Of a DNA stretch of 64,000 nucleotides, positions 4,453 to 52,884 are shown in pieces; position 1 is the stretch's first letter, and every line of letters starts with the position of its first letter. The translations under genes were made by a program, and so were the position numbers. The notes below the pieces were generated by a model. It saw only the letters and a list, made by a program, of their open reading frames with translations, was not told the DNA's origin and did no database searches. The stretch comes from an uncultured Candidatus Saccharibacteria bacterium (GTDB lineage: Bacteria; Patescibacteriota; Minisyncoccia; Minisyncoccales; Staskawiczbacteraceae), in the NCBI GenBank assembly GCA_964479955.1, contig CAYZNK010000002.1, forward strand, positions 71,489 to 135,488, read 5' to 3'.

Positions 4453-4454
4453 CA

Positions 4455-33077: not shown

Positions 33078-33149
33078 GCCATTCTAGCTCAACAGCAGAG
33101 CAATGCTTTTGTAAAGCATAGGTTCCGAGTGCAAATCTCGGGAATGGCT
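33078..33149 (+). tRNA. tRNA-Thr(UGU)
   Basis: Acceptor gccattc/gaatggc, D arm gctc-aacagca-gagc, anticodon arm atgct-ttTGTaa-agcat, T arm ccgag-tgcaaat-ctcgg. 72 nt. Confidence 0.8.
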
Positions 33150-33208
33150 CATTGTGCGACAAGAGCCTCTTACGAGGCTTTTGTTTTAATTTATGGTATA
33201 ATATATTA

Positions 33209-35713: not shown

Positions 35714-36094
35714 ACATATATAACAATTAAAAACATAAAGACAAAATCACTATATATTCTTCCCGTCATTGCGGGATCCCCCGCTAAGCGGGGGAAAAAC
35801 TAAACAGCGTTTTAAGAATATCCGTGAAGGCAGGTTTTAAAGGTCTGTCTTCACGGGTATTTTTTCTTCTTGGCTGAACGGAAAGCCTTTTGATAATTGA
35901 ATAATGGAAACCAGTTTTAAAAACTGGGAAAAAATTGAATTAGCGGAGTGTCCACAGTACTGAAAATTTCTACGAAAATTTTAGCGCTGAGAGAATTCAC
36001 TTCGTGTAATTCGTTTCTTAAAGTTGTTTCGAATCAAAGCTTGTCGAGTGCTTAACTCGACAGTAGTTTATTCTAACTAGAGTAATCAACTTTT

Positions 36095-37556
36095 TTTTGA
36101 GAGTTTGATCCTAGCTCAGGGTGAACGCTGGTAACGTGGATACCGGCATGCAAGTCGAGCGGACCGCAAGGTCAGCGGCGAACGGCATAGTAACACGTGG
36201 GTACAAACCCTTTTCTCGGGTATAGCCAGCCGAAAGGTTGGGTAATTCCCGATAGTTCTCGCAAGAGTAAAGTCGCAAGACGGAAAAGGATTGGCCCGCG
36301 GCCTATCAGATTGTTGGCAGGGTAACGGCCTACCAAGTCTATGACGGGTAGGGGGCGTGAGAGCGCGACCCCCATGAATGGCACTGCGACACGGGCCATA
36401 CTCCTACGGGAGGCTGCAGTCGAGAATCTTCCGCAATGGGCGAAAGCCTGACGGAGCGACGTTACGTGAATGAAGAAGCCCTTCGGGGTGTAAAGTTCTT
36501 TTATGTGGGAATAAGTTATTGAAGGTACCACATGAATAAGAGGATCCTAATTCTGTGCCAGCAGGAGCGGTAATACAGAATCCTCAAGCGTTACCCGGAT
36601 TTATTGGGCGTAAAGGGTCCGTAGGTGGTAAAGTAAGTTTTGAGTTAAACCTCATCGGCTTAACCTTTGAGCTATTCAAAATACTGCTTTACTTGAGGGC
36701 GTTATGGGTGAACGGAACCGACGGAGTAGGGGTGAAATCCGTTGATATCGTCGGGAACACCAAAAGCGAAGGCAGTTCACTGGGGCGACCCTGACACTGA
36801 GGGACGAAAGCGTGGGTAGCAAAAAGGATTAGATACCCTTGTAGTCCACGCCGTAAATGATGAATACTAGCTATTGGCAGTGTCGACCCTGCCAGTGGCG
36901 AAGCTAACGCGTTAAGTATTCCGCCTAGGAAGTACGGTGGCAACACTAAAACTCAAAGGAATAGACGGGGACTCACACAAGCGGTGGACCATGTGGCTTA
37001 ATTCGACAACAAACGAAGAACCTTACCAGGTCTAGAAATCTGCATGAAAGCCTTCAGAAACGTTGGCCCTTCACAAGACATGCAGACAGGTGCTGCATGG
37101 TTGTCGTCAGTTCGTGTCTTGAGACGTACCGTTAATTCGGGTAACGAACGCAACCCTTGCCGTGTGTTTTAAATGTCACACGGGACTGCCCGAGATAATT
37201 GGGAGGAAGGCGAGGATGACGCCAAATCAGCATGGCCCTTTGATGACCTGGGCCGCACACGTGGTACAATGGCCGGTACAATGGGTTTCGATGCCGCAAG
37301 GCGGAGATTAATCTCATCAAAACCGGTCTCAGTTCGGATTGAGGGCTGAAACCCGCCCTCATGAAGCTGGAATCGCTAGTAATCGCCAATCAGCTATGTG
37401 GCGATGAATACGTTCCTGAGTCTTGTACTCACCGCCCGTCAAGCCAAGCGAGCTGGGGATAGCCGAAGTGCCCGCAAGGGCCCTAAGCTAGATTCAGTAA
37501 GAGGGGCTAAGTCGTAACAAGGCACGGCTAGCGGAAGCTGGTCGTAGATCATTTTT
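36095..37556 (+). rRNA. rrs: 16S rRNA (stand-alone; no linked tRNA or 23S)
   Basis: Starts near gagagtttgatcctagctcag and ends ...aagtcgtaacaaggcacggctagcggaagctggtcgtagatcattttttt. Flanked by a processing stem (36013-36036 pairs with 37690-37713) and a terminator at about 37762-37790. Confidence 0.9.
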
Positions 37557-37840
37557 TTAAAATTTTGTATAGAAACCTTTTGGTTTATATACAAAATGGA
37601 ATGTAGTCGGCTCAGAGTGATTCGATAAACTCAGTTCGATGAGTATATCGAATTGTTCTGAAGCATTTTAGCAGATTTGCTTGAAAATCGCATTCGAAAC
37701 AACTTTAAGAAACTAATTTTTCCACAGAAAAATTATCCTGAGATTTTCGAAGGGTAAGACATTACTCCGTCAAAAGCGGAGTTTTGTTTTGATTAAGGTT
37801 GTTCTTGAAAATTAGTTGGAAAAGAATTAAGCTATCTTAT

Positions 37841-38284
37841 ATGGTTCAATATTTTACCTGTGAGGGTTTGCAAAAAATTAAAGACGAATTAAAAGACATA
37901 AAAGAAAATCAGGTGAGAGAAACAAAAAAGCTTATTAAAGAAGCGGCGGCTTTTGGCGACTTAAAAGAAAATGCTGCGTACCACGACGCAAGGGATAAGA
38001 TGTCTTTTTTGAAAGGCAGGATTGAACAATTGGAATGTGCAATCAACGAGGCTGTGATAAGAGAGAAAGATGGAAATGATACGGTTCAGATTGGCTCTGA
38101 AATAAAAATTTTATTTGGCAACTCAGAAGAGAATTATACAATTACATCTCCTACAGAGGCTGATGTTTTAAAAAACAAAATTTCTTATCAGTCGCCCTTG
38201 GGTAAAGAGCTCATGGGTAAAAAAGTGGGTGATAAATTTAAATTCAACGGTAAAACAGAAATAAAAATCTTAGAAATAAAATAA
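37841..38284 (+). CDS. greA: transcription elongation factor GreA
   Basis: GDLKENAAYHDARDK motif. ATG at 37841. Confidence 0.85.
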   Translation: MVQYFTCEGLQKIKDELKDIKENQVRETKKLIKEAAAFGDLKENAAYHDARDKMSFLKGRIEQLECAINEAVIREKDGNDTVQIGSEIKILFGNSEENYTITSPTEADVLKNKISYQSPLGKELMGKKVGDKFKFNGKTEIKILEIK

Positions 38285-38400
38285 ATTATAAAAAACAGAC
38301 GATAGATTTGCCTGTTTTTTTAATTATTCACACTTTTACTATTGCATTGTTTCATTTTTTTTATTTTAATTAAAAAATAGTTTTTATTTTTTTAAAAAAA

Positions 38401-39555
38401 ATGCAATATGATTTTATTGTCATTGGAGCTAACGGAGTGCAGGGAAAAATAGTTGCAAAAGACCTTTTACTTAGTGGATACTCTGTCCTTTTAGCTGCGA
38501 CCGATGACTATAATTTAGACTCTTTGATTGATTTGAAAAAATCGGATTTTACAAATCTTAATTTGGAAAACATTACAAAGGCAAAAAGGGTGATAAAAAA
38601 ATCCGGTGCCCCCGTTGTTGTTAATTGCTCAATAGATGATTACAATTTAGTCGTCACAAAGGTTTGCTTGGAGCTTGGGGTCAATTATATTGATTTGGGC
38701 TCTGAAGAAGATATGACATATGAGCAGTTAAAACTAGATAAAGATTTTAAGGAAAAAAGCATAATAGCCATAACGGGGCTTGGTTCAACTCCAGGAATAA
38801 ACAATGTGATGTTAAGGTCAATTAAAGATGAGTTTGACGCGATAGAAACAGTTAAGCTTGGTTTTGCGTGGAGTTCTAATATGGATAAATTTGTTGTTCC
38901 GTTTTCCATAGATGCTATTGCCTGCGAATTTTCAGAGCCTGCCAAGGTTTTTGAAAACGGAAAATATGTAGAAAAAATGCCAGAAGATTGCAAAGAAAAT
39001 TTTGAGTACAGGGGTCTTGAAAAGCAAAGAACTTTGTTTACAAAACATATAGAGCATCATACATTCCGCGATTTTTTACGAGACAAAGGTATTAAAAATA
39101 TTTTTGTTTATTCAAGTTTTCCCGAATTTTCGTATAGGACAATAAAAACCTTGATCGACTTGGGGCTTGTTTCAAAGCAAAAAATAGATTTTCAAGGGAC
39201 TAAAATCAGTCCGCTTGATTTTACTTCAGAAGCTTTAAAAAGAATTCCTTTTCCTGAAAAATATAAAGAAAAAGAAGTTATATGGCTCAATGTTTCAGGC
39301 AAGAAAGACAGCAAAGACAAGGCTATAAAAATGGAAGCTTTGGCTGAAACTTTGCCAGGATGGGAAGATGCAACCTGTAACATTGATACCGGAATGCCCG
39401 CTTCAATAGCAGCCCAGATGATTTTAAAAGGAGAAATTCCAGAAAAGGGAGTTTTTACGCCAGAGTTTGTGATTCCTCCGGAGCCCTTTTTTAAAGAGCT
39501 TAGTAAAAGAAAGATATTTATTTATAAAGACGGAAAAGTAATAAACCAAAACTAA
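38401..39555 (+). CDS. saccharopine-dehydrogenase-like NAD(P)-binding protein
   Basis: FIVIGANGVQGKIV Rossmann start. 384 aa. Confidence 0.5.
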   Translation: MQYDFIVIGANGVQGKIVAKDLLLSGYSVLLAATDDYNLDSLIDLKKSDFTNLNLENITKAKRVIKKSGAPVVVNCSIDDYNLVVTKVCLELGVNYIDLGSEEDMTYEQLKLDKDFKEKSIIAITGLGSTPGINNVMLRSIKDEFDAIETVKLGFAWSSNMDKFVVPFSIDAIACEFSEPAKVFENGKYVEKMPEDCKENFEYRGLEKQRTLFTKHIEHHTFRDFLRDKGIKNIFVYSSFPEFSYRTIKTLIDLGLVSKQKIDFQGTKISPLDFTSEALKRIPFPEKYKEKEVIWLNVSGKKDSKDKAIKMEALAETLPGWEDATCNIDTGMPASIAAQMILKGEIPEKGVFTPEFVIPPEPFFKELSKRKIFIYKDGKVINQN

Positions 39556-39600
39556 CTAAAAACCACCTTAGATCAGGTGGTTTTTTTGTGTTTTAAAATT

Positions 39601-39696
39601 CTGGTGGACCCGGGGAGGAGTTGCCCGAAGGCATTGCTGTCGCCTTCGGCGCCACAATTCGGGGGGATTCTCCCCGCGCCACTAAATAAAATTTAG
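39601..39696 (-). repeat. tRNA-3'-end-associated hairpin element (copy at tRNA-Ala)
   Basis: Minus-strand order: AT palindrome actaaat-aaa-atttagt, inverted copy ggcgcggggagaatc, ccccccgaattg, hairpin gaaggc-gacagcaat-gccttc, then a direct copy ctccccgggtccac plus CA. 39604-39617 is identical to 39696-39709. Confidence 0.7.
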
Positions 39697-39767
39697 TGGA
39701 CCCGGGGAGAATCGAACTCCCAGCTTCTCGTTGCAAACGAGATGTGTTGCCACTATACCACGGGCCC
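39697..39767 (-). tRNA. tRNA-Ala(UGC)
   Basis: Acceptor gggcccg/cgggtcc with the G3:U70 pair, anticodon arm tctcg-ttTGCaa-cgaga, T arm gggag-ttcgatt-ctccc. Confidence 0.8.
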
Positions 39768-39859
39768 TCATATTGATTTTTATTTTATCTTAATTCTCGG
39801 TTTTTTTCAAGTTAATTGATGTTTGTTGTAAAAGATGATAATTTTAAATCAAATCAGAT

Positions 39860-41899
39860 ATGTGGCAGAGCTTTAGAAAAAATCCCAGCAACAATGCGGT
39901 TTTGACAATTGAAGATAATGGTTTTAAAAAATCAGAAACTTTTGTTTTTAAAACGGGCGGATTGATTTGGGCAACGCCGGTAATTGATGAAAAAGAAACA
40001 ATATATGTGGGGTCAGCAGACAAATATTTTTATTCAATTGACAACACGGGAAACTTAAATTGGAAGTACAAAATTACAGATAGTTTGGACTCTTTGATAG
40101 ATTCTGCGGGAGTTATACTGGATGACAAAGTTGTTATTCCCGGAGGAGATGGGTATATCCACGCAGTTAACAGGGAGACAGGAGAGTTGATTTGGAAATT
40201 TAAAGCTTATCACGCAAAAGATTCAGAGCAAGCAAGCGGCGAATTAGTCAATTCTCTTGAAGGAAATATAGCAATAAATAACGGCCTTTTGTATGCGGGT
40301 TCAGACAATGGCTATATGTATTGCTTGGACAAAAACGGCAAAGAAATCTGGAATTTTAAAACAGGGATGATGATTTGGTCTTGCCCCTGTTTTTTTGATG
40401 AAAAAATAGCATTTGGGTCTTTAGACGGATATTTATATTTGCTGGATTCTTCAAACGGGAAACTATTAGATAAGAAAAAAATAGGGGAGATAAAGGCCTC
40501 ACCTGTTTATGACAAAGAAAATAATTTGATATTTGTGGGCACAAGCTCTGGAAAAATGTATTCCTTCAAAATACTTCAGGGAAAATTAAAAAAGAGATGG
40601 GTTTTAAATTTTAAAAAAGAAATTTATTCTTCTGCTGCATATTATCAAAACAATCTTTATTTTGCCGCAGGAAATAGTTTTTATTCTGTGGATTATAACG
40701 GAAAAACTTTGTGGAAGTACAATACATTTTCTAAAGTTTCATCTTCTCCTGTTATTATTGAAGGCCAAGGCGTAATTTTTGGGGCAGAAAACGGAAAACT
40801 TTATGCTTTGAATTTTGAGGGCCAAAGAATTTGGTCTTTCAAAACTTCAGACGGTTTGCATAAGGTAAATTTGGATTCTTCTCCTGCCATAAGCAAAAGT
40901 GGAAACATATATGTTGGCTCTTATAATGGAAATGTTTATAAAATTCCCTATGAATATTGCCTAAAAAATAACGATGAAAAATGCGAGTTTGGCGGCATAT
41001 CTGATGAGCCAATTTATGAAGGCAAAAATTTTAAATTTGAAGACGCAGACTCAAATTTAAAAGACAATTTTGGGGCGGGCCTGTCAGAACCATTAAGAAT
41101 TAAAATGTTTGCCTTTAAAAATGGAAGCTACTTGGAAAATTCTGCTTTGAATTCTGTAAAAATAAGCGTAAGCCCCAATGTAAGCTTTACATATCAAATA
41201 TCTTCTGACGGAAAATACATAGATATTATTCCAAATGATTTTTGGCAAGAAAAAACAGATTACAAAATATCTATAAAAGCAAATTATTATCAAAAAACTA
41301 ATTTTATTTTTGATTTATTTAAGAGTTTCTTTTTGCCCAAAATTGAAGGCACTTTAAGTTTTTCAACAAAAGAAAAAGGATGTGAAAATTTTCAAGAGCA
41401 AAAGTTTTTTATAAAAGACCTTTCTTTGTATCAGCCTTTGGCAATGAATACTTTGGTGGCGGCTGCCCTAGACGGGCAAAAATACATTGCAGAGTTTTCA
41501 TTAAAAGAAGAAAATAAAATTGGAATAATTTTAAACCCGGCATATGAATCTGACGGAAAATTTTTAAAAATGCCCGCCTCATCGGCGGGTGAAAAAATTC
41601 AAAGCAGGCAGATAGTTTTGAGCGGAATTTTAAACGGAAAATATTTTGTTGCAAAGGGAAGCCTTGAATTGTCTGCAATGGGCGGAACAATACCATTTAA
41701 AGATGCAGTATTTTCCGGTAAAATTGAAAACAACAAAATTGAAAACGGAATGTTTTTTACAAAAATAAACTGCCTTAAAATAAAGGGAAACTCAAAAAAT
41801 TACAATTTGCCGTTTAATATAATAAGCGAAATCTGCGGCAGAGACCTTAATATAACAGTTCTGGCGGGTTTTTCAGGAGAAAGCATTGTTGAATTTTAA
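39860..41899 (+). CDS. PQQ-like beta-propeller repeat protein
   Basis: Repeated YVGS.DG.(L/M)Y.(L/I)D...G...W blades. 679 aa. Confidence 0.7.
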   Translation: MWQSFRKNPSNNAVLTIEDNGFKKSETFVFKTGGLIWATPVIDEKETIYVGSADKYFYSIDNTGNLNWKYKITDSLDSLIDSAGVILDDKVVIPGGDGYIHAVNRETGELIWKFKAYHAKDSEQASGELVNSLEGNIAINNGLLYAGSDNGYMYCLDKNGKEIWNFKTGMMIWSCPCFFDEKIAFGSLDGYLYLLDSSNGKLLDKKKIGEIKASPVYDKENNLIFVGTSSGKMYSFKILQGKLKKRWVLNFKKEIYSSAAYYQNNLYFAAGNSFYSVDYNGKTLWKYNTFSKVSSSPVIIEGQGVIFGAENGKLYALNFEGQRIWSFKTSDGLHKVNLDSSPAISKSGNIYVGSYNGNVYKIPYEYCLKNNDEKCEFGGISDEPIYEGKNFKFEDADSNLKDNFGAGLSEPLRIKMFAFKNGSYLENSALNSVKISVSPNVSFTYQISSDGKYIDIIPNDFWQEKTDYKISIKANYYQKTNFIFDLFKSFFLPKIEGTLSFSTKEKGCENFQEQKFFIKDLSLYQPLAMNTLVAAALDGQKYIAEFSLKEENKIGIILNPAYESDGKFLKMPASSAGEKIQSRQIVLSGILNGKYFVAKGSLELSAMGGTIPFKDAVFSGKIENNKIENGMFFTKINCLKIKGNSKNYNLPFNIISEICGRDLNITVLAGFSGESIVEF

Positions 41900-41964
41900 T
41901 AAAAATTGATGATATTTATTGGGTTTATTATTGAAAAGCCGTCCTTAATTGGGCGGTTTTTGCG

Positions 41965-41993
41965 TTGACAAAAAATAGCGCAACGAGTAAAGT
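41965..41993 (+). promoter_or_regulatory. sigma70-type promoter of cassette 42057..43073
   Basis: TTGACA, 17-nt spacer, TAAAGT. Confidence 0.55.
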
Positions 41994-42056
41994 AAAAATG
42001 TGTTCTTTACATATTGCCCTAAATAGCTGGGCGTAATCAAGTTTGGGAGTTTTGCC

Positions 42057-43073
42057 ATGAGTAATGTTGTTTCCACAAAGTCTGTAGAAGAAGCGAAACC
42101 CGTTCACCCGTTGGCTAATTTTATGCCAACATCTTTCCAGTCGTTTGACGATTGGCTTGCAAGGTGGAATAGTGCTACAGTTACGCAGGAAAGATTGGGA
42201 TTGCTTCATTGTATGCAAACTATTGAATATTGGCTTGAGAAAACCGAGCAATCCGTGTTTTTTCTTCTTGACGTAGCTAACGGATGGGAAACAGGAAACC
42301 CTTTTCGTTGTTATCATCGTCATTACAATGCTGATGACATCAATAAGAGTCGCGAAATCATTTCGCGCAAGGCATTTGATGTCTTATGCGTTAAATTGTT
42401 TGCTTCTGGCAAACAAGATTACCCGCCTTTATGGTGGTGGATGTTGGAAAAACAAGAGACTTTTGACAAACTTCTTAACTTTTGCGGCCCCGAAGCTAGG
42501 AATTATTATAAACCGTTTGCAGGAGGGCAGGTGAGCCACCAGGTGGAGGTGTATGGCAGTTTTCTGCAAGAGTTTAGCCGTTTGGGATGGACTTATTCGC
42601 GGCGCTCCAATAGACAAGGCGAGGTTGCAAACGAGGATGAAATTCGGGCGCGCCTTGTTGCTGCCCGACCTCAATTTATAGATATCCTTAGGTATTTGGG
42701 TCAACTTAATTGGCTTAATCGGCCGATGGGTTGTTATGGTGGTGACTTTCCAGAGCTTGATAAACCCTCTATTAGTAAATTGAGGGAAATCGTTTTTGAG
42801 ACAGAATTATTGCTCCCCCCACAGGATTTTCATTCGCCGGCAGAGCATAGCCGTAAGCCGAAGAATTTGCGCGAAGCTATTCTCGGAGCTTCTGTTGCTG
42901 CAGAAGTTCTTGTATTAAATGATATCCGTCTGGCAGAGCGCAATAGAATTAAGGCAGCTTGGAGAAAATCTAGGCGCAAACACGAAAATATGGAACGTAT
43001 AAGCCGCCTGGAAAAAATTGAAAAAGCAAAAAGGACTTTGGATGAGGAGGCCGCGCGGCTTACCGGCCAATAG
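42057..43073 (+). CDS. orphan hypothetical protein (GC-richer cassette)
   Basis: 338-aa ORF with tgggag 7 nt before the ATG. Trp-rich with a basic coiled-coil tail. Terminator cctccgc...gcggagg plus T7. No family recognised. Confidence 0.7.
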   Translation: MSNVVSTKSVEEAKPVHPLANFMPTSFQSFDDWLARWNSATVTQERLGLLHCMQTIEYWLEKTEQSVFFLLDVANGWETGNPFRCYHRHYNADDINKSREIISRKAFDVLCVKLFASGKQDYPPLWWWMLEKQETFDKLLNFCGPEARNYYKPFAGGQVSHQVEVYGSFLQEFSRLGWTYSRRSNRQGEVANEDEIRARLVAARPQFIDILRYLGQLNWLNRPMGCYGGDFPELDKPSISKLREIVFETELLLPPQDFHSPAEHSRKPKNLREAILGASVAAEVLVLNDIRLAERNRIKAAWRKSRRKHENMERISRLEKIEKAKRTLDEEAARLTGQ

Positions 43074-43120
43074 GGATTTTAGTTTGAGTCCCAATCCTCC
43101 GCTGATACATTAAGCGGAGG

Positions 43121-43187
43121 TTTTTTTATTGCAATTTTATAAAATAAAAGTTAAATTAAATAAATTGAAATATGAGCTTATCAATTC
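43121..43187 (+). repeat. duplicated copy of the ychF promoter and first 5 codons (decayed copy)
   Basis: About 65 nt with 4 mismatches to 43669-43733. It reads ATGAGCTTATCAATT and then diverges to a stop. Confidence 0.8.
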
Positions 43188-43370
43188 AGCTTTGTGATTA
43201 AAATCCTACCGCGGAGATATGAAAAAATTATAACAAGTCGAGACGAATAGGAAAGAATCGTTCATTTAATATTGGTTTGATAGGGTGATGCTTGGTTGAC
43301 ATTAGCGATTTCAAGTGATAAAGTTTTAATTGGCTCTTCTTAACTCTAAACAAGAAAGGAAAGGTGAGTC

Positions 43371-43610
43371 ATGGCAAATAAAATGCCAACAGTTTATCAA
43401 CTTATACCGCCACTCGCGGTAAGAATGACCCAAGAAGTTCACATCGGAATGGGCCCTGAAGGATTTTCCCTCAAAAAGCACGAACGAGGAATTGCTTCTG
43501 GTACTCTCGGATTTTGCACAATCGAAGGGAGACCCAGATTGGGATTCCAGGTCACTTTCGCGGGTTTGGACTTTGTTCTTCCACAAGAGTTCATAGAGCT
43601 CGTTCCGTAA
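43371..43610 (+). CDS. orphan small protein (GC-richer cassette)
   Basis: 79 aa with aggaaaggtgag just before the ATG. Promoter TTGACA-17-TAAAGT at 43296-43324. Terminator ggggtggctgaacagtcaccc plus T-run. Confidence 0.6.
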   Translation: MANKMPTVYQLIPPLAVRMTQEVHIGMGPEGFSLKKHERGIASGTLGFCTIEGRPRLGFQVTFAGLDFVLPQEFIELVP

Positions 43611-43668
43611 TAAAGTGAATCTCAATCCTTCCATGGTTTGTGCCTATGGGGTGGCTGAACAGTCACCC

Positions 43669-43733
43669 TTTTTTATTGCAATTTTGTGAAATAAAAGTTA
43701 AATTAAATGAATTGAAATATGAGTTTATCAATT
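43669..43733 (+). repeat. native copy of the duplicated ychF 5' region
   Basis: See 43121-43187. Confidence 0.8.
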
Positions 43734-44789
43734 GGGATTGTGGGGTTGCCGAATGTGGGCAAGTCTACTTTATTCAAAACTCTAACTAAAAAGGAAGTTG
43801 ATATCGCAAACTATCCTTTTTGTACCATTGACCCTAATGTTGGGGTTGTTTTGGTTCCTGACCAGAGGGTTGATAAGTTAGCTGAAATATCAAAATCAAA
43901 AAAGAAAATTTATGCAACAGTGGACTTTGTGGATATTGCGGGCCTTGTAAAAGGAGCTTCGCAAGGAGAGGGTTTGGGAAACAAATTTTTGTCGCATATC
44001 CGCGAAGTGGATGCTGTGCTTTACGTTTTGCGGGCATTTAAAAATTCAGATATTATAAATACCCAACAGGATATTGACCCCTTAAGAGATAAAGAAATTT
44101 TGGATGTGGAGCTTATTTTAAAAGATTTGGAAACAATAAATAAAAGAATTGACGGATTAGAAGGTGATGTAAGAGCAGGAAAAAAAGATGCGATTAAGGA
44201 AATGGCTATTTTGCAAAAAGCAAAAGAATTTTTAACTCAGGAAAAATTATTGTGCGACATTAATTTTTTAGATGAAGAAAAAGAAATTTTAAATAGTTTT
44301 CAGCTTTTGACCTTAAAGCCAAGATTGTATTTGTTGAACGGAAAAGAGGAAGAAATAGAAGAGAGCGTAATGCAGTCCTTCGCCTCGGGCTTGGGACAAA
44401 AAAATTCCGTTTTTTTGGACGTGCAATCTGAATACGAGAGCGAAGGATTATCGCCAGAAGAAAGAGTTGAACTGGGATTGCCCGGATTGTCTGAAACAGA
44501 TGTTTTGGTAAAAAAATCTTATGAGCTTTTAAGTCTTATAACTTTTTTGACAACAGGAGAAGATGAAACACGAGCATGGACAATAAAGAGAGGGGATATG
44601 GCCCCTGTTGCGGGAGCTGCAATTCATAGCGATTTTCAGGAAAAATTTGTAAAAGCAGAAGTTGTTTTTTGGGAAGATTTAATTAAGAGCGGAGGGTACG
44701 CCAAAGCCCGCGAAAAAGGACTTATTCGCACAGAGGGAAAAGAATATGTTGTGCAAGATGGCGATGTCATCGAGTTTAAGCATGGTTAA
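43719..44789 (+). CDS. ychF: redox-regulated ATPase YchF
   Basis: [12 protein letters not shown] and [10 protein letters not shown] motifs with a C-terminal TGS-like end. Confidence 0.9.
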
Positions 44790-44932
44790 AATATATTAAA
44801 ATATATAAAGATTCAATCATACTGAGGAGCGTTAGCGACGAATGGGTTATTGAATTTAGACACGGATAACATCAACGAATAACGAATTCCGCCTGCGGCG
44901 GATTACGAATATACGAATTCATAAAAGCGAAA

Positions 44933-45235
44933 ATGGAATTTACTATCAATAATATAGAAGAAAATGTTGTAGTTGTTGCCAGGAGAATTGGTTATTTGAT
45001 TATTGATACAAAAGAAAATGGGGAATATAATTTAGTTAGGAGATTAACGCAGGGAAATTATCCAAGGTTTCATATTTACGCAAAAGTTCAGGGAGATAAA
45101 TATATTTTTAGTTTGCACTTAGACCAAAAAGCTCCCATATATAAAGGGAGTCATGCGCACAGCGGAGAATATGCCGGGCCTGTTGTGGACGCTGAAGCAG
45201 ATAGAATTTGCGAAGTGTTAGGAAAATCAGAATAA
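44933..45235 (+). CDS. hypothetical protein
   Basis: 100-aa ORF with AT-rich backbone composition. No family recognised. Confidence 0.55.
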   Translation: MEFTINNIEENVVVVARRIGYLIIDTKENGEYNLVRRLTQGNYPRFHIYAKVQGDKYIFSLHLDQKAPIYKGSHAHSGEYAGPVVDAEADRICEVLGKSE

Positions 45236-45370
45236 AACCCTATCACCAATTTCAGCCAAGTTAAAAGGTAAGATATACTTTGAAGGCGAAGTGCCTTCGG
45301 CTGTTAATTTTGTAATATAAAGTCAGCGGTGAAATTGGTGAGGGGTTATTGCGACGGTAAGGTATAAATC
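45236..45370. repeat. hairpin-core element, copy A
   Basis: About 80% identical by eye to 57591-57732. Terminal inverted repeat is aaccctatcaccaatttc / gaaattggtgaggggtt, and the inner hairpin is gaagg-cgaagtg-ccttc. Confidence 0.75.
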
Positions 45371-45499
45371 CTTCGACTTCGCTCAGGCCTTCGGCTCTGA
45401 TAGTCTCGGACTCGAAGAGATATTTTCTGCGGAAAATAAAAGCCCTGCAAACCGTAGAAGAGCAGTGAGCAGGGCATAAAGAAGGATGAATCCGACGGA

Positions 45500-45823
45500 T
45501 TATTCAACGTATCCGCAAGAGTTTTCAATGGAGTAGTAAAGAGTGATTTCTGCACCCTCCTTGATCTTTTCGTGACAGAATTCTCCTTTGCAAGATAATC
45601 CTTTTATCCTGCAGACCAATTTGAAAAGCTGGAATTTGGTTTCGTCAAAGACGATAGACATCACCTCTGCTGAAATGGCAGTTGACTTCTCCTGATAAGA
45701 CAGGAAGAAAACAGGAAGATTTCCGGGACGCCTTTTAATGAGGGCTTCCCATAAGGGTAGGTTGGTTGGACCGTCTTTGACCAAGATTTTTTCCGTTTCT
45801 ATTTCCAATGCGGCGTTACTCAT
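45500..45823 (-). CDS. orphan hypothetical protein (GC-richer cassette)
   Basis: 107 aa with agggaga 5 nt before the ATG. Terminator gccctgc...gcagggc plus T-run at 45440-45478 (minus strand). Confidence 0.65.
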   Translation of the reverse strand: MSNAALEIETEKILVKDGPTNLPLWEALIKRRPGNLPVFFLSYQEKSTAISAEVMSIVFDETKFQLFKLVCRIKGLSCKGEFCHEKIKEGAEITLYYSIENSCGYVE

Positions 45824-45871
45824 TGCAATCTCCCTAAAGAGCGTGTTTTGTAAATTTACTCCCTATTATTT

Positions 45872-45900
45872 ATTATATCATAATAAAATACCTATGTCAA
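45872..45900 (-). promoter_or_regulatory. consensus sigma70-type promoter of cassette 45500..45823
   Basis: On the minus strand: TTGACA, 17-nt spacer, TATAAT. Confidence 0.65.
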
Positions 45901-45947
45901 ATCTTTCACCATTGAAAAATACTTTTTAAAAATAAACATAAAGAATC

Positions 45948-46760
45948 ATGAATTTATATAATCTAAAGCAAAAATACAGCCAGTATGATGAAGATTCAAT
46001 ATTAAAAGTTTTATATGAAGATAATCATATAATTGCCGTTGTAAAGCCAGCTAGTGTTTTAACGCAAGCTGATGGGTCAGGAGAAAAATGTTTAATGGAC
46101 ATTGTTAAAGATTATTTAAAAGAAAAATATAAAAAACCGGGAAATATTTTTTTGGGATTGGTGCATAGGTTAGACAAGCCGGTGCAGGGGATTGTGCTGT
46201 TTGCAAAAACTTCAAAAGGGGCTTCAAGGCTGTCAGAGCAGTTTAGAAACCACACTATACAAAAAACTTACCACGCTGTTGTTTTTGGCAAGCCAAAAAT
46301 GGACAAGGGAGAAATTAAAGAAAAAATAAATAAAATTTCTTTTTTTGCAGAAGGCTTTGCAGAAAAATCAGATAAAGAGCTTTTGGAAGAAATTAAAAAG
46401 GCAACAAAAACAAGGACAGCTGAGCTTAGCTGGGAAGTTATAAAATGTGGAAAACCCTTCGACACGGCTCAGGGCAAAAGTTGTTACACACTTTTGAAAG
46501 TTTTACCAAAGACCGGAAGGTTTCATCAAATAAGGGTGCAAATGGCAAATATGGGAAACCCTATTTTGGGAGATAGAAAATATATCCCCGATTCTATTAC
46601 CTGCCTGTCCGGCAGGCAGGTGCGACAAACTAAAGATATATGGAAAGATGAAAAATCAATTGCGCTGGCTGCTACGGGAATTGTTTTTAAAACAGCCACA
46701 GGAGATAAACAAATCAGCTTGGAAATTCCTTTACCTGAAGAATGGAAAAAATATATATAG
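45948..46760 (+). CDS. RluA-family pseudouridine synthase
   Basis: HRLDKPVQGIVLFAKT catalytic motif and FHQIRVQM. Carries two GC-rich in-frame inserts. Confidence 0.8.
   Translation: MNLYNLKQKYSQYDEDSILKVLYEDNHIIAVVKPASVLTQADGSGEKCLMDIVKDYLKEKYKKPGNIFLGLVHRLDKPVQGIVLFAKTSKGASRLSEQFRNHTIQKTYHAVVFGKPKMDKGEIKEKINKISFFAEGFAEKSDKELLEEIKKATKTRTAELSWEVIKCGKPFDTAQGKSCYTLLKVLPKTGRFHQIRVQMANMGNPILGDRKYIPDSITCLSGRQVRQTKDIWKDEKSIALAATGIVFKTATGDKQISLEIPLPEEWKKYI
46600..46629 (+). repeat. CCTGCCTG...CAGGCAGG palindromic element, copy inside the RluA-family CDS
   Basis: cctgcctg-tccgg-caggcagg-tgcgacaaa with a 9-bp perfect stem, translated as CLSGRQVRQ. Confidence 0.7.
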
Positions 46761-47001
46761 GTATAGCCAAACGCCTTATATTTCATCTGCTAGTTTGCGG
46801 GATATCAATCCTTCGACACGGCTCAGGATCTCCGCTCGTTGTTGCTCGCTACGAGTTATCCACAGTGTTAAGGGTTGATTTGTTTTTTCAAAATAGGGAT
46901 AATAATATAATATGCAAAAAGGTCGATTTATCCGTTAAATCGCCGAAAGGCATCGGATAATTTAGATTTAATTTGCTTTATCAACTAATATAATAAAAAA
47001 T

Positions 47002-47688
47002 ATGACATATAGTGAATGGTTTTTATCAATTATCCAGCCGTTTTTGCAGGAATTTATATTCTTTTTGGCTAATTTGTTATTAGCTATTATTGTTTTCGTA
47101 ATAGGATATCTGATTTCTGCTGGAATTGGGAAATTGATATCAGAAATATTAAGAAGCCTAAGGTTTAACAAGCTCTTTGAAAAAGAGGGATGGAGAAAGG
47201 CATTGCAAAGGGCAAACATAGAGGTTAACCCTGCCGAATTTATAGGGGCAATTTTCAAATGGATTTTTGTGGTTGTTTCTTTGGCAGTTGCCGTTGATGT
47301 TTTAAACCTTACAATGTTTACAGGGCTTTTGACGCAGGTGATTAATTACTTGCCAAACCTGATTGCAGCCGTATTGGTATTTATTGTTGCAATAATCATT
47401 TCTGATATTATAGAAAAAATTGTCAGGATTACAGTTGAAAGATTAAAAGTAAATTATGGATATGTTGCTTCGTCAATTGTAAAATGGGCAATTTGGGTTT
47501 TTGCTTTTTTCTTGATATTGGACAGCCTTTTGCCTGCATCTCTTTTGGTTAAAACCTTGTATACCGGAATAGTTTACGGAGTAATAGGAGCTTTGGCATT
47601 AGGCATTGGATTGGCAATTGGACTGGGCGGAAAGGAAACTGCCGCAAAAATTATTTCAGAAATGCACAGAAGGTTTGAAGAAAGATAA
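47002..47688 (+). CDS. membrane protein with TM-helix repeats (mechanosensitive-channel-related pattern)
   Basis: 228 aa with 5-6 TMs. Tentative family call. Confidence 0.45.
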   Translation: MTYSEWFLSIIQPFLQEFIFFLANLLLAIIVFVIGYLISAGIGKLISEILRSLRFNKLFEKEGWRKALQRANIEVNPAEFIGAIFKWIFVVVSLAVAVDVLNLTMFTGLLTQVINYLPNLIAAVLVFIVAIIISDIIEKIVRITVERLKVNYGYVASSIVKWAIWVFAFFLILDSLLPASLLVKTLYTGIVYGVIGALALGIGLAIGLGGKETAAKIISEMHRRFEER

Positions 47689-47921
47689 AACATAGATATT
47701 TGACTGCCTCATTATTTTGAGGCTTATAAAAGATAAACGCTCTCCTTAAAGATTTTGGAGAGTGAAACAAAAAGACGCGTACGTACCGCGCCTTTTTGTT
47801 TATATCCATACTACATTTTATTGTGCGATAGCTGTCAAATTCATTTAGAATTTTGAAAACAAAAAGAGAGCTGGTCAGTGCTCTTATTGTTTAACGACCG
47901 GCAACTTACTGTCGCCTTGAT

Positions 47922-48068
47922 TTAATCAGGAAGTAAAGCGCCGCACCTGTTGCAGGAATGCAACACTCGGCCGTACTTATATCGATGGGGGATTGGCGTG
48001 TGGTATCCGCCATTGGGACAGCCACAAAGCCATACAACACGAATGTACTCCCAAATCTTTTTTAGCAT
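47922..48068 (-). CDS. orphan 48-aa zinc-ribbon-like peptide (GC-richer cassette)
   Basis: Own translation: MLKKIWEYIRVVWLCGCPNGGYHTPIPHRYKYGRVLHSCNRCGALLPD*. aaaggaaaa lies upstream. Minus-strand terminator is agagc-actgacca-gctct plus T-run. Below the ORF-track size cutoff. Confidence 0.4.
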   Translation of the reverse strand: MLKKIWEYIRVVWLCGCPNGGYHTPIPHRYKYGRVLHSCNRCGALLPD

Positions 48069-48345
48069 GGCAGTTTTTCCTTTCTTGTTATAGAAAATTT
48101 GACTCGCCGATATGTGGTTGGTAGATTAACTACTATTAAGTTAATAATATCATATATAAAATACTTTGTCAATAGTAAATTTAAGATTGAGAAAGATTAA
48201 AAATTTAAAATTCCGACTGAACACAGCGGGGGCGGTTTGGCTATTGAGTCTTCACCATTTGTAACGGAGAACTTGCGATAGGTGTTTAAACAAACCTTGT
48301 AAATAGCAATACCATAGATTTTTTTCATTGGGAAATGGTGAAGAC

Positions 48346-48374
48346 TTGACAGGGGTTTAAAAATAAATTAAGAT
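48346..48374 (+). promoter_or_regulatory. 23S-5S rRNA promoter
   Basis: TTGACA, 17-nt spacer, TAAGAT. The right arm of a 14-bp inverted repeat abuts the -35 element. Confidence 0.55.
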
Positions 48375-49020
48375 ATAATTACATGATGAAAAAACAAACC
48401 AATAAATTTAACAAAACAAGCGGATGATTGTCTGACTTTTTGTGTTAGTAGATGACCGCTTGAATAAGCGGTTTTAAATTTATTGAAAATCAGTTTGCCG
48501 GCGATTGAAAATATAAATTGTTTTCAGCCGCGGGTTAATTGATTGAAGCGGAAGCAAAGATTGCTTTTTGAAAATTTAACCCTGTTAAATGTTTTAAATA
48601 ACAAATTGCCTACCAGCAATTTTTAACAGGTTCTTCCCAATTAATTTTAGACATGGGGTCTTTTTAATTGGGGAAAGTAGGTAAGTCCTGTTAAAATTTT
48701 AACAGGATAAAGCATAAAATTAAGTTCACATTTGCGTTGATGATTCAGCGCAAAAAAGTAAACTTACGCAAAAAGATAAGCTTAACAATTAAGTTTATCG
48801 AAGGATAGGTTATAAGCGAATGGCGGATGCCTTGGGATATTGATGCGATGAAGGACGTGGCGTGCCTGCGATAAGCATCGGGGAGGTGGCTAGCAACCTT
48901 TGATCCGGTGATTTCCGAATGGGAAAACCTTATTGTGTTAATCCACAATAACCCCGCCTTGGCGGGGAGCGTACCCGGTGAAGTGAAACATCTCAGTAGC
49001 CGGAGGAAAAGAGAACAAAA

Positions 49021-49289
49021 GTCCTACAACTTACAAATTTTATCAATTTAGCGAAGCGAATTTTGAGACAAATTCGCGACGCGAGGAGCAGTGCGTGCCA
49101 AGTGGCACGAGAGCGACGAAGCAACAAAGAATTTGGCCAAAATTCGTTCGCCCGAAGGGAAACGAAAAAAATGGCTGATTTCTTTGTTGCAACTTCGTTA
49201 ACGTAGTTAACACTATGTTTCCTCGTTGCGCCTCGAAATCATCACATTTTTTCGTTTCTAAATATGACGAAATTTGTAAGTTGTAGGAC
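49021..49289 (+). other. 23S insertion sequence 1 (IVS-like), closed by a 20-bp perfect helix
   Basis: gtcctacaacttacaaattt (49021-40) pairs with aaatttgtaagttgtaggac (49270-89). It lies between GAGGAAAAGA and AGTAGTGGCGAGCGAA. Confidence 0.75.
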
Positions 49290-49346
49290 AAGTTATATCC
49301 TTAGTAGTGGCGAGCGAAAAGGATACAGCCTAAACTAATTTTTTTA

Positions 49347-49505
49347 CACCGCTACTTTTTGATAATTTTCGTAACGAAATAAAATAATTTTGCGCGAGAA
49401 TTTGGAAATGCAAGGAGGTTTGCCAAGTGGCAAGCCGACGAGCAGTTACAAATTTGTAGCCGAAATTATTAATTGCAGTAGAAAAGTTATCAGAAAGTAG
49501 CGGTG
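49347..49505 (+). other. 23S insertion sequence 2 (IVS-like), closed by a 19-bp helix
   Basis: caccgctactttttgataa pairs with ttatcagaaagtagcggtg (one G-U pair). It shares a gccaagtggca...cgacga.gca block with insertion 1. Confidence 0.7.
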
Positions 49506-49861
49506 AAATTAGGGTTGTAAGGTTGTAGCGTCAGGAGCGTTATTTATTCTTCGTATAGTCGAAGAACGAATAATGCTTGCTGAGAGAGAAAATTTAGATA
49601 AAGGTTTTAATAGAAGCACTCTGGAAAGAGGCGCCATAGAAGGTAATAGCCCTGTATATAAAAAAACTATTTATGCTCTTTGCTATGATACTTGAGTACT
49701 GTCGGGCATGATAACCTGGCAGGAATCTACCGGAACTATCCGGTAAGGCTAAATAATCAATATCACCGATAGTGAACCAGTACCGTGAGGGAAAGGTGAA
49801 AAGCAGGGGGTTGACCCCGATGAAATAGTACCTGAAACCATTTGCTTACAAAGAGTCGGAG

Positions 49862-49943
49862 GTCTTCACCTTTTGGGTGTTGAGTTTAATTGTGGAACAA
49901 AACAATTTCCACAAAAATAATTTGACCTTCAAAAGGTGAAGAC
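49862..49943 (+). other. 23S insertion sequence 3 in the helix-25 region
   Basis: gtcttcacctttt pairs with aaaaggtgaagac, a 13-bp perfect stem. Confidence 0.7.
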
Positions 49944-50586
49944 TGACGGCGTGCTTTTTGTAGAACGAGCCAACGAGTTTGAATAATCAATAGTCTAAGC
50001 CCTTACGGGGCGGAGGCACAGCGAAAGCGAGTGTTAAAAGCGCGAAAAATTATATTGGTTGTTCAAGACCCGAAGCCAGACGAGCTTACCGCGAGCAGGA
50101 TGAACCCGGGCGAAAGCCAGGGGGAGGTCCGAACCAGTGAGTCGTGCAATTCTCTTGGATGACTTGTGGTAAGGAGTGAAAAGCTAATCGAGTTTGGTAA
50201 TAGCTGGTTCTTCCCGAAACAGCTTTGGGGCTGGCGTGTACAAACTATTTTCCGGGGGTAGAGCACTGAATAGAATTCCGTGGAGTTTCTCCAGGTCTTC
50301 TAATCAAACTCCGAATACCGGAAAAACTATGTATGCAGTAAGAACGCGGGGGCTAAGCTCCGCGCTCAAAACGGAAACAGCCGAGATCATCGTCTAAGGT
50401 CCCTAAATTAGGCTAAGTGCTAAGAAGGAGGTATTTTACCCTTGACAGGCAGAAAGTTAGCTTAGAGGTAGCTATCTTTTAAAGAGTGTGTAACAACCCA
50501 CTGCCCAAACTTTCCCGCTTGCGGGAGAGAGGGGTGAGATGCGCCAAAGATTTCCGGGGCTAAAGTCTAATACCGAAGACATGGAT

Positions 50587-50712
50587 TCATTCGCATCACA
50601 CTGCGTGTGATGTTAAATGACCAAAAACCAAAAACCAAAAATATTTAATATTTTGGGATTTGAGAATTGGAATTTGGGAATTTAAGCATCGTGCGAAGCG
50701 CGATGCGAGTGA
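50587..50712 (+). other. 23S insertion sequence 4 in the helix-45 region
   Basis: tcattcgcatc pairs with gatgcgagtga. It contains a CA-repeat / UG-repeat hairpin (50621-50683). Confidence 0.65.
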
Positions 50713-51003
50713 GTGGTAGGGAAGCATTCTGAGGGCATTGAAGCAGGAGGGTAACCGACTGTGGAGCGCTCAGAAGAGAGAATGTTGGCCTGAGTAACCG
50801 CATTGCGCGTGAAAGCCGCGCACACCGAAAGTCCAAGGTTTCCTTGGCAATGGTATTCAACCAAGGGTTAGGCGGTCCTAAGGCAAACCTGAAAGGGGTA
50901 GCTGACGGACAGTTGGTTAATATTCCAACCCTTTTTTATCCGTTCAATAAAGTGCGGAATTTAGTAGGTAAAGCGATTTATTGGATTATCGTTGTTAGTC
51001 AGA

Positions 51004-51030
51004 CCTGTCTGCCGTCAGGCAGGCGCAAGA
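51004..51030 (+). repeat. CCTGYCTG...CAGGCAGG palindromic element, copy inside 23S
   Basis: cctgtctg-ccgt-caggcagg-cgcaaga. Confidence 0.6.
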
Positions 51031-51420
51031 ATGGCTAACGGAAGGTCTCTTTATGGGGCTGACTTTACTGAGCAAGTTTCCAAGAAAAGCTTTATTTAAA
51101 TAGGATAAAGAAACCGTACCGTAAACCGACACAGGTGGACAAGCGTAAGTATGCTAAGGTGAACGGGTGAAACCTCGTTAAGGAACTCGGCAAATCAGTG
51201 GCCGTAAGTTCGCAATATGGCCTGCCCGACACGCAAGTGTTTAGGGCTGCAACAAACGTACTTCAACCGACTGTTTATCAAAAACACAGCTCTCTGCTAA
51301 CTCGTAAGAGGATGTATAGGGGGTGAGGCCTGACCAGTGTTGGAATGTTAAGTTTGGGGGTCCAAGCCGCAAGGTTTGGGCTCACTGAATGAAGCACCAA
51401 TGAACGTCGGCGATAACTAT

Positions 51421-52151: not shown

Positions 52152-52815
52152 AATCGTCCAAAGGTAGCGTAATCCCTTGCCGGGTAAGTTCCGGCCCGCA
52201 TGAATGGCTTAACGAGTTGAAGACTGTCTCAACGAGGTGCCCGGTGAAAATGCAATAGCAGTGAAGATGCTGCTTACCTGCGGCTAGACGGGAAGACCCC
52301 GGAAGCTTTACTGTAGTTTGATATTGGGTTATGGTTTTTAATGCGTAGCGTAGTGGGGAGGATATGAAACGGCATTTTCGGATGTCGCGGATCCGCCAAT
52401 GAAACACCCATCTTTGGGAATTATAATTCTAATCCACGCCTCAACGGCGGGTGACAGTGTTAAACGGGCAGTTTAAGTGGGGCACTTGCCTCCTAAAAAG
52501 TAATGGAGGCGTTTAAAGGTCAGCTAGCTTCGGATGGAAATCGAAGCGATAGTGTAAAGGCAAAAGCTGGCTTTACTGCAAGACGGCTATGTCACGCAGT
52601 TGCGAAAGCAGAACTTAGTGAACCGACTTGTTTTTATAGAAAACAAGAAGATCATCAGCCAAAAGCTACTCCGGGGATAACAGGCTGGTAGAGCCCGAGC
52701 GTCCATAGCGACGGCTCTGTTCGGCACCTCGATGTCGGCTCAACTTATCCTGGGGCTGGAGCAGGTCCCAAGGGTCCGGCTGTTCGCCGGTTAAAAAGTT
52801 ACGCGAGCTGGGTTC

Positions 52816-52846
<31 letters not shown>

Positions 52847-52884
52847 ACCGCAGGCGTTGAGTTTTGAGGAGATTTGTTCCTAGT

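Follow-up and report, generated by a model that had tools for sequence, protein, structure and literature searches.

A direct repeat of the 3′ part of a tRNA that restores the gene is the classic mark of integration into tRNA genes, and seamless excision is also a feature of the IS200/IS605 insertion sequences. Group II introns are at least 400 nucleotides (nt) long. At the right end of IS608, a guide sequence located 5′ of the foot of the hairpin base-pairs with the site where the element end is cleaved (PMC3201880), and small ribozymes located exactly at tRNA 3′ ends are known (PMC10879173). Group I introns were described at position 35/36 of Patescibacteria tRNAs, and group II introns were reported to be absent from Patescibacteria (PMC13011429). 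Here we analyze a 92-nt non-coding insert directly 3′ of a tRNA-Ala(UGC) gene in a stretch of 64,000 nt (the window) of contig CAYZNK010000002.1, from an uncultured Candidatus Saccharibacteria bacterium. This insert and a sister element at tRNA-Gln(CUG) in the same window belong to a real and apparently undescribed family, which is attached to the 3′ ends of tRNA genes in a lineage of Patescibacteria (candidate phyla radiation, CPR). A literature search returned no description of the element, the nearest match being the group I introns in Patescibacteria tRNAs (PMC13011429).

After tRNA-Ala, the parts of the element follow in the order hairpin H, antisense arm X, conserved bulged hairpin (CCCCCGAATTG...GCAATGCCTTCGGG), linker and A2, in which the last 14 nt of the tRNA (A1) are directly repeated, as listed in Table 1. 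All sequence blocks that the original prediction had listed at this tRNA are present where it placed them, with the palindrome quoted in its plus-strand reading. The insert leaves a complete tRNA gene upstream, and its borders can slide within the 14-nt repeat, 39618-39709 being an equivalent description. The stretch between CCCCCGAATTG and the direct repeat CTCCCCGGGTCCAC reads GGGCAACTC, and arm X (GTGGCGCGGGGAGAATC) would be the exact reverse complement (GTGGACCCGGGGAGAATC) but for two substituted bases and one that is missing. H begins right after tRNA position 74 and stacks on the A1·X pairing; it is a short form, and most family members have a ~40-nt AT-rich terminator-like hairpin instead. 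Position 75 of the tRNA-Ala copy is T (CTA) versus the native C (CCA), and it is A2 that together with the native CA reads CCA.

The element resembles tRNA-targeting integrative elements in having the tRNA 3′ repeat on both sides, a restored gene, a frequent start of the repeat at the T-loop and a possible seamless absence; the direct repeat is 14 nt long in the Ala copy, 22 nt in the Gln copy and mostly 20-24 nt in the family. However, family members are 92-190 base pairs (bp) long without an integrase or any other gene, the same structured core is found at 24 tRNA species, and the interior exhibits a tRNA-matched antisense arm, RNA-type covariation and purifying selection. With IS200/IS605 and their protein-less derivatives (palindrome-associated transposable elements, PATEs, and repetitive extragenic palindromic (REP) elements with REP-associated tyrosine transposases, RAYTs), it shares the folding of one strand, the small size, the non-coding nature and the seamless loss, as well as subterminal hairpins (H on the left, the core near the right end); a sequence 5′ of the hairpin would likewise pair with the element end. 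It differs from them in the length of this pairing (12-26 bp in the family versus about 4 nt), in a left flank that is identical to the right end sequence, and in copies that are long-lived orthologous residents. Moreover, no Y1 transposase or TnpB gene was seen in the window or in the flanks of 45 loci, and there is no match to Rfam and hence none to the IS605-associated RNA families held there.

As in the pairing between exon-binding and intron-binding sites (EBS/IBS) of group II introns, an internal antisense segment pairs with the sequence just upstream of the insertion, and specificity changes with the pairing segment; however, the elements are ~100-190 nt long and have no six-domain structure, no intron-encoded protein and no group II match in Rfam. 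Theta ribozymes are likewise small structured RNAs at the 3′ ends of many tRNAs, mostly without encoded CCA, but the element has no double pseudoknot of the hepatitis delta virus (HDV) type, possesses tRNA-matched arms and a repeat, and resides in bacterial chromosomes rather than in gut phages (PMC10879173). The tRNA-like minihelices, such as the domains of transfer-messenger RNA (tmRNA) and YrlA, are comparable to X·A2, which mimics the stacked acceptor and T stems, ends in discriminator-C(CA) and in most members includes the T-loop sequence. Unlike these mimics, the element copies the neighboring tRNA rather than a fixed sequence, and its T-loop is opened by a ~90-nt insert. An ARAGORN search gave no tmRNA match, and the best YrlA score was 27 bits versus a 69-bit cut-off, on the tRNAs themselves. 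The element lacks defining features of integrative elements and probably of IS608-type ends, and it falls into no curated RNA family.

Arms matched to the host tRNA and strand-specific structure

A metagenome scan with the pattern CCCCYGAATTGN{14,44}GCAATGCYTTCG identified 42 loci (here designated by L and a number), three of which were judged to be chance matches, with neither a tRNA nor flanking similarity; nearly all of the others directly follow a tRNA of the same strand. From eight members, with both window copies left out, a covariance model was built that recovered 56 copies (49 distinct) from the window and 43 loci. Among these were the Gln copy (54.4 bits, E=2.1e-12) and the Ala copy (48.6 bits, E=9.5e-11), and no further site scored in the window. 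The two elements had been proposed to be homologous, and they are: the shared blocks are real, an independent model finds both, they resemble each other far more than expected by chance, and the family has many more members. The block CCCCCGAATTG is exactly common to the Ala and Gln copies and has no third site in the window even with one mismatch. The hosts represent 24 anticodon species and 14 amino acids, namely Ala (UGC, CGC), Arg (UCG, CCG), Asn (GUU), Asp (GUC), Gln (CUG, UUG), Gly (GCC, UCC), Ile (GAU, UAU), Leu (UAA, GAG), Lys (CUU, UUU), Pro (UGG), Ser (UGA, GCU, CGA), Thr (UGU), Trp (CCA) and Val (GAC, UAC), and the element always lies on the tRNA strand. This distribution of copies, together with the search for an integrase, which found none beside either window copy or elsewhere in the 64 kb, agrees with the earlier suggestion that the element is not the scar of a single integrase.

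Family members are about 90-190 nt in size and start 0-3 nt from the discriminator base. A typical member exceeds the Ala copy in length, with an H that is a ~40-nt AT-rich palindrome with a GC tip and an A2 of 20-24 nt that starts exactly at T-loop position 54. The short form is the Ala(UGC) lineage (the window, L121-123, L160 and L162), where A2 starts in the T-stem. A2 is usually an exact second copy of the tRNA 3′ part, and A1 and A2 differ at some loci (e.g. L146 and L164). In tRNA clusters the elements occupy the spacers, with five copies within 2.6 kb at L134.

Arm X is an imperfect antisense of tRNA positions ~49-74, rich in G·U wobbles, and it is matched to the host tRNA. The mean energy of the X·tRNA duplex is -25.4 kcal/mol for the cognate tRNA versus -15.6 for tRNAs of other types (-29.4 kcal/mol versus a non-cognate mean of -16.7 for the X of the Ala copy), and the cognate tRNA ranks first for X in 24 of 33 elements. 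In the X·A2 helix, all 12 pairs show changes on both sides among the 49 distinct aligned copies, and 75% of the cells of this 12-bp acceptor-plus-T-stem helix, which ends in the discriminator, are paired. Overall, 84% of cells are paired in the 49 distinct copies versus 69% in shuffles, and the covariation score is 0.311 versus 0.100 in shuffles and at most 0.08 with the partners slid. The arms are thus re-tailored to each host tRNA, as had been anticipated from the Ala and Gln copies. However, X is not a fresh copy of its target, because X·A2 has a conserved mismatch where the tRNA has pair 52:62 and because GYGAGAAYC inside X is conserved irrespective of the host tRNA. A scheme in which the arms are copied fresh from the target at each insertion was rejected, as X deviates in a fixed pattern even in the copy with an empty-site allele.

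In the core, helix P1 (CCCGAA/UUCGGG) is invariant among the 49 distinct copies except for C/U opposite G, and it is followed by a four-base bulge UGCY (TGCC in the Ala copy), by P2 (UUGY/GCAA) with a few double changes, and then by a one-base bulge. P3 is free in sequence and length and always pairs, its base alternating between G-C pairs and tandem G·A. The Ala copy folds with CCCGAA/TTCGGG, TTGT/GCAA and CGCC-GAA-GGCG as P1, P2 and P3, and the P3 of an 88% relative is CUCGCC-CGCU-GGCGAG. The inner hairpin drawn in the original prediction (GAAGGC-loop-GCCTTC) is not a conserved fold, the one supported by the 49 copies being P1, P2 and the variable P3. The conserved unpaired nucleotides of the family are GAGAAYC, the UGCC bulge and CAACUC, and on its own the element folds into H and a core that is closed by the X·A2 stem. 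In most cases the sense strand has a better folding energy than the complementary strand, for X·A (26 versus 7), for H (25 versus 5, p=1e-4) and for the core (29 versus 4, p=8e-6), a bias of the kind that G·U wobbles produce. The structure is strand-specific, and the folding strand is the tRNA-sense strand; U·G intermediates are present in H and in P1.

The insert can be seamlessly present or absent. Logan contig L120, from a near-identical strain, has the same tRNA-Ala gene with an intact CCA and no insert; it encodes an identical saccharopine dehydrogenase protein, and on either side of the insert all aligned bases of its DNA agree with the window. The empty allele reads ...GGGTCCACCAGAATT, its tRNA-Ala ends ...GGGTCCACCAGAATTTT, and its difference from the window is exactly 92 nt. 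L120 was taken as a true empty allele because a 14-nt repeat should not collapse at the k of the Logan assembly, which we take to be 31. At the level of sequence, the comparison with the window indicates either a seamless gain or a seamless loss.

In a second lineage with 90% identity in the saccharopine dehydrogenase protein (L121-L124, L162), all loci carry the insert. Between the window and L121, the third codon positions of the neighboring gene are 67% identical and the flanking intergenic DNA is 76-79% identical, versus 72/72 positions in the tRNA, 86/92 in the whole element, 78/79 in X-core-A2 and 100% in arm X. Five of the six differences in the element fall in the tip of H and preserve its stem, forming a compensatory series of TAAAT...ATTTA (window), TAAAT-GAA-GTTTA (L160/L125) and TAAAC-AAA-GTTTA (L121) via a U·G intermediate. 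Gene conversion cannot explain the identity of X, as the genome contains no second copy of X that could act as donor. These alignments indicate that X, core and A2 are under purifying selection as a single-stranded structure, almost as tight as that on the tRNA itself. In more distant relatives, with homologues of the neighboring gene at 62-75% identity and synteny lost, no element was found. The empty-site allele, the strand-specific selected structure and the extent of the arm over tRNA positions 49-74 had not been part of the original prediction.

The element sits inside tRNA transcription units. The order in the window is promoter-like site, tRNA-Ala, element and native terminator, and at L132 the element is the entire spacer between tRNA-Ile and tRNA-Ala in one unit that extends from a promoter-like site to a strong terminator. 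The element is probably co-transcribed with its tRNA.

Explanations of the element

It is plausible that the element acts in cis at the RNA level, as a mimic of the acceptor and T stems in a co-transcribed trailer or spacer of the tRNA, and we give this explanation a probability of about one half. In such a precursor, the tRNA would fold first and then H, and X would capture A2 as A2 emerges. X·A2 would form a 12-bp helix that imitates the acceptor stem stacked on the T stem and that closes the conserved hairpin, and the duplicated 3′ part would thereby be barred from competing with the real 3′ end for the tRNA body. The co-transcriptional order (tRNA, H, X, A2) favors the X·A2 conformation, which presumably is the pairing that forms. 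The trailer would be a tRNA-like minihelix with defined ends that RNase Z, RNase P and the CCA-adding enzyme could cut free, and the conserved core may be a docking site for a putative factor. At the DNA level, the direct repeats would allow precise loss, which was seen, and possibly gain by recombination across the repeat.

Several points weigh against the stem mimic. In minimum free energy (MFE) folds of whole precursors, seven out of seven pair the 5′ acceptor strand with A2 and form a long hairpin from tRNA positions 49-74 and X, capped by H. X has five extra pairs with tRNA 49-53 that A2 cannot offer, and it may target the tRNA itself instead of A2. The covariance alignment was fitted to the proposed structure, and covariation between X and A2 is expected under any scheme that derives both from the tRNA. 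Transcription is deduced from position and from consensus matches to promoters and terminators. H scores as terminator-like in many or most members, and if it terminates efficiently, little X-core-A2 RNA would form; in operons H cannot terminate fully, as the downstream tRNA would otherwise not be made. Processing by RNase Z and RNase P is purely conjectural, and recognition by enzymes and the role of the core are likewise putative. Masking of the duplicated 3′ part explains X but neither the near-invariant core nor the persistent identity of A2 with A1, and therefore a further function or partner must exist.

A guide-programmed mobile element is a distinctly less probable explanation, although the strongest of the others. 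The element would be a non-autonomous transposon-like unit with its enzyme in trans, following the 'peel and paste' logic of IS200/IS605 or a logic like that of group II introns. X would pair with the 3′ third of the tRNA gene (as single-stranded DNA or RNA) and set the insertion point, and it would also pair with A2 as the right end, while a trans-encoded enzyme would recognize the conserved hairpin, cut and join. The succession of X, hairpin, linker, A2 and end has the topology of the IS608 right end (PMC3201880), only one strand folds, and loss or gain is seamless. Tandem arrays of the unit A-H-X-core (L153, L138, L149) and orphan and chimeric copies (L125/L165, L133, L161) are also consistent with mobility, the near-invariant core suggests sequence-specific recognition, and the five additional X pairs with tRNA 49-53 could be a toehold for target invasion. 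However, no transposase, HUH enzyme, reverse transcriptase or integrase was found in the window and none recurs near the 45 loci, and group II introns, the other possible model, are reported absent from Patescibacteria (PMC13011429). Across diverged genomes, copies at the same type of tRNA are orthologous (GreA/tRNA-Ala and FtsX/tRNA-Gln synteny), and they are subject to purifying selection instead of turning over. Copies within one genome differ, and X is imperfect in a fixed pattern and so not copied fresh from the target. The empty allele is a single one, and slippage between the 14-nt repeats could yield the same. That the family represents a natural programmable insertion system, with X as a ~26-nt guide that pairs with one strand of the tRNA gene and directs seamless insertion or excision by a trans enzyme reading the hairpin, appears marginally more doubtful still.

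Searches for partner enzymes covered the window and the surroundings of other copies. A Pfam scan of 58 open reading frames (ORFs) of the window and of both neighborhoods detected no integrase, transposase or reverse transcriptase; among such enzymes, only LAGLIDADG endonucleases were identified in the window ORFs, in or after the 23S rRNA gene. Neither the 64 kb of the window nor the flanks of 45 loci yielded a Y1 (HUH) transposase, and clustering of the ORFs from these loci revealed no recurrent recombinase or mobilizing enzyme. Housekeeping genes that recur beside the element at these loci (GreA, FtsX/FtsE, L19, an RluA-like pseudouridine synthase, RecG and FtsH) reflect synteny with particular tRNAs. 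Phage and plasmid collections gave nothing above E~1 with blastn, two core patterns had one chance match each in viral contigs, and the matches listed for the pattern CCCCCGAATTGN{0,3}CGCCGA in GTDB genomes were only chance ones, mostly in GC-rich genomes.

We consider it improbable that the element is an intron in the T-arm, in which case the functional tRNA would consist of the 5′ body plus A2, and the segment from the T-loop of A1 to the linker would be removed from the RNA. The MFE folds of all seven precursors, with the 5′ acceptor strand paired to A2 and A1 in a hairpin with X, would suit such an arrangement, as would the uninterrupted tRNA obtained by deleting one repeat and the interior, the presence of CCA after A2 only in the Ala copy, and the richness of Patescibacteria in introns (PMC13011429). 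However, the upstream copy already is a complete, high-scoring tRNA (60 bits) for which splicing is unneeded, the interior after X (~60-80 nt) was judged too short for a group I or II catalytic core, no bulge-helix-bulge motif was found at the junctions when the sequence was read by eye, and neither repeat encodes CCA in the Gln copy. There is also no match to an intron or ribozyme family in Rfam. At the gathering threshold, only tRNA and rRNA families pass, in the window as well as at eight further loci, and under permissive settings (E up to 10 for both window copies and 0.5 for the eight loci) the element matched no family, including group I and II introns and the HDV, hatchet, twister, pistol, hammerhead and hairpin ribozymes.

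Still less credible is a self-cleaving ribozyme that trims the tRNA 3′ end, as was proposed for the HDV-like theta ribozymes at phage tRNAs. It would fit the precedent of small ribozymes exactly at tRNA 3′ ends (PMC10879173), the element start 0-3 nt from the discriminator base and the conserved unpaired GAGAAYC, UGCC bulge and CAACUC. Even at permissive E no ribozyme model in Rfam matches, and the supported fold is a plain bulged hairpin in a closing stem with no nested double pseudoknot; the junction lies within a continuous helix and not in a loop, and a ribozyme would have no use for the repeated tRNA end. Threading onto known folds by eye also failed, for the HDV-like fold because P2 pairs locally, and for loop A of the hairpin ribozyme (AGAA in X versus AGUC in the T-loop) because position 59 is not conserved as G.

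Already largely refuted, and the least probable of all, is the scar of an integrase, with A1 and A2 as attL and attR attachment sites of tRNA-targeting elements and the interior as attP arms after deletion of the cargo: although the tRNA 3′ repeat restoring the gene is the classic signature, the repeat in most members starts exactly at the T-loop, a known crossover sublocation, and a more classical-looking 3′-half duplication exists at tRNA-Ile in the same window, the same ~60-nt core stands behind 24 tRNA species with no integrase nearby, independent deletions would not share the same ends each time, the interior has RNA-type compensatory changes and strand-specific wobbles and is conserved far above neutral sites, a tRNA-matched antisense arm has no role in att sites, and a 92-bp double-stranded circle would probably be too stiff to recombine readily.

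If the element does act as RNA, these ultra-small bacteria would attach a tRNA-specific structured trailer, conserved like the tRNA, to many of their tRNAs, which would point to a new step in tRNA maturation, quality control or regulation. Many of the usual RNA-processing enzymes are missing in these organisms. Should the element instead be mobile DNA, it would represent a non-coding unit targeted by base pairing of an internal arm that leaves the gene undamaged, a new guide-directed class in the smallest bacterial genomes that is retargeted by a change of the arm and is relevant to programmable genome insertion. Either way, RNA databases could gain a sequence-defined family that comprises 49 distinct members and comes with a covariance model and with examples of an empty site, of tandem arrays and of chimeras. 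The family also explains the tRNA 3′ fragments beside tRNA genes in these genomes, as well as the breaks and rearrangements of assemblies at tRNA genes; the ends of several contigs fall within an element, and the chimeras join an arm to the repeat of another tRNA.

Feature coordinates and further observations

Table 1. Positions in the window of the Ala and Gln elements, their host tRNA genes and the flanking transcription signals
Feature	Position	Strand	Basis or remark
Promoter-like site TTGAAA-17-TAAAAT upstream of tRNA-Ala	39782-39810	-	Consensus scan, 10/12 matches; pattern match only
tRNA-Ala(UGC) gene	39696-39767	-	ARAGORN; Rfam tRNA, 60 bits
Repeat copy A1 CTCCCCGGGTCCAC, last 14 nt of tRNA-Ala	39696-39709	-	Sequence
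Insert (H + X + core + linker + A2)	39604-39695	-	Alignment with Logan contig L120; covariance-model match 39593-39692, 48.6 bits
Hairpin H, TAAAT-TTT-ATTTA palindrome	39683-39695	-	Sequence
Arm X GTGGCGCGGGGAGAATC, imperfect antisense of tRNA T-loop, T-stem and acceptor 3′ strand	39666-39682	-	Sequence; duplex energies
Conserved core CCCCCGAATTG...GCAATGCCTTCGGG, bulged hairpin	39624-39665	-	Sequence; pair counts on 49 distinct copies
Core 5′ block CCCCCGAATTG	39655-39665	-	Sequence
Core middle TGGCGCCGAAGGCGACA	39638-39654	-	Sequence
Core 3′ block GCAATGCCTTCGGG	39624-39637	-	Sequence
Linker CAACTC, conserved, single-stranded	39618-39623	-	Family alignment
A2 direct repeat CTCCCCGGGTCCAC	39604-39617	-	Sequence; with native CA 39602-39617, continuing into native downstream sequence
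Native bidirectional terminator that also serves the convergent saccharopine dehydrogenase gene	39558-39585	both	Terminator scan; 11-bp stem and T tract on each strand
tRNA-Gln(CUG), host of the sister element	4382-4453	+	ARAGORN, Rfam
Sister element at tRNA-Gln	4454-4619	+	Same part order; covariance-model match 4494-4623, 54.4 bits
Gln-copy repeat A1	4433-4454	+	Sequence
Gln-copy H	4459-4490	+	Sequence
Gln-copy X	4502-4524	+	Sequence
Gln-copy core	4525-4597	+	P3 with an extra hairpin CCCCGC-CACA-GCGGGG
Gln-copy A2, 22 nt, TTCGAATCCAAGTCCCGCAGCA	4598-4619	+	Sequence

The complete upstream host tRNAs of the Ala and Gln copies score 60 and 61.6 bits, respectively, with the Rfam tRNA model. The tRNA 3′ ends are uneven in the window (990-1063, 1133-1205, 4382-4453, 7503-7577, 33078-33150): Gly, Ile and the native Ala encode CCA, and both Thr genes and Gln read discriminator-C-A without the second C. 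The tRNA-Ile(GAU) gene (7503-7577, +) has an encoded CCA and is followed, after an AT-rich spacer of ~45 nt, by a ~41-nt direct repeat of its own 3′ half, from the anticodon loop to position 7663 (TAAGACAGAGGCCAAAAGTCCGATTCCTTTATCGCCCACCA, with 2-3 mismatches). This repeat has no family core and no covariance-model match, and the duplication (7503-7663) looks like a classical att duplication at the anticodon loop or its remnant. The orthologous tRNA-Ile, on the syntenic contig L140, has a complete element of the family in place of this repeat.

Two other structural proposals and one source for the core were considered and rejected. X resembles the kink-turn Kt-7 (GGCGAAGAACC), with a register that, by eye, does not fit a kink-turn; a pseudoknot between the UGCC bulge and GGCG in X, likewise drawn by eye, has no covariation; and the core has no similarity to rRNA or to other window sequence.

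A number of family members deviate from the simple arrangement. At L153 (49-290, -) two units lie head to tail at a spacing of 133 nt, the second A2 being followed by the start of a third H, and a second H-like hairpin directly follows A2 at L138 (1494-1892, -) and L149 (~680-900, -). The elements of L149 and L154/L167 lie behind a bare 3′ fragment of tRNA-Ala and not behind a complete gene. Chimeras were identified at L133 (50-265, -) and L161 (138-206, -), where X fits the upstream tRNA (Arg in L133, Gln in L161) and A2 is the 3′ end of another tRNA; the A2 and downstream flank of L133 are nearly identical to those of L142 (35-141, +). The sequences of the chimeras suggest recombination between elements at different tRNA loci, an event that would rearrange the genome. 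Orphan copies, with an intact core and no tRNA directly upstream, are L125 (2702-2809, -; the same as L165), L145 (1434-1543, +) and L156 (3116-3223, -; the same as L126). L125 comes from an 88% relative of the window locus and has lost tRNA-Ala, with nothing but CCAC left in front of H and with a decayed A2 (CTCCTAGGTCCAC). In L156/L126, the element that L159 carries at tRNA-Asn follows an unrelated sequence whose last letters are ...GCGAGC.

The RluA-like pseudouridine synthase of the window (45948-46760, +), identified by its HRLD motif, recurs in eight element-bearing loci; this recurrence seems to stem from synteny with the L19 / tRNA-Leu / tRNA-Val cluster and not from a functional connection. 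The 23S rRNA match starting at 48803 extends over 4079 nt versus a 2925-nt model, so that insertions account for ~1.15 kb (region 48803-53519, +). One LAGLIDADG endonuclease ORF (51495-52061) lies within a 23S insertion and a second one (53040-53519) between 23S and 5S. The rRNA genes are unlinked (36093-54096), with 16S (36093-37559) located ~11 kb from 23S; protein genes and the opposite-strand tRNA-Ala sit between them, and nearly all other genes of the window are on the plus strand.

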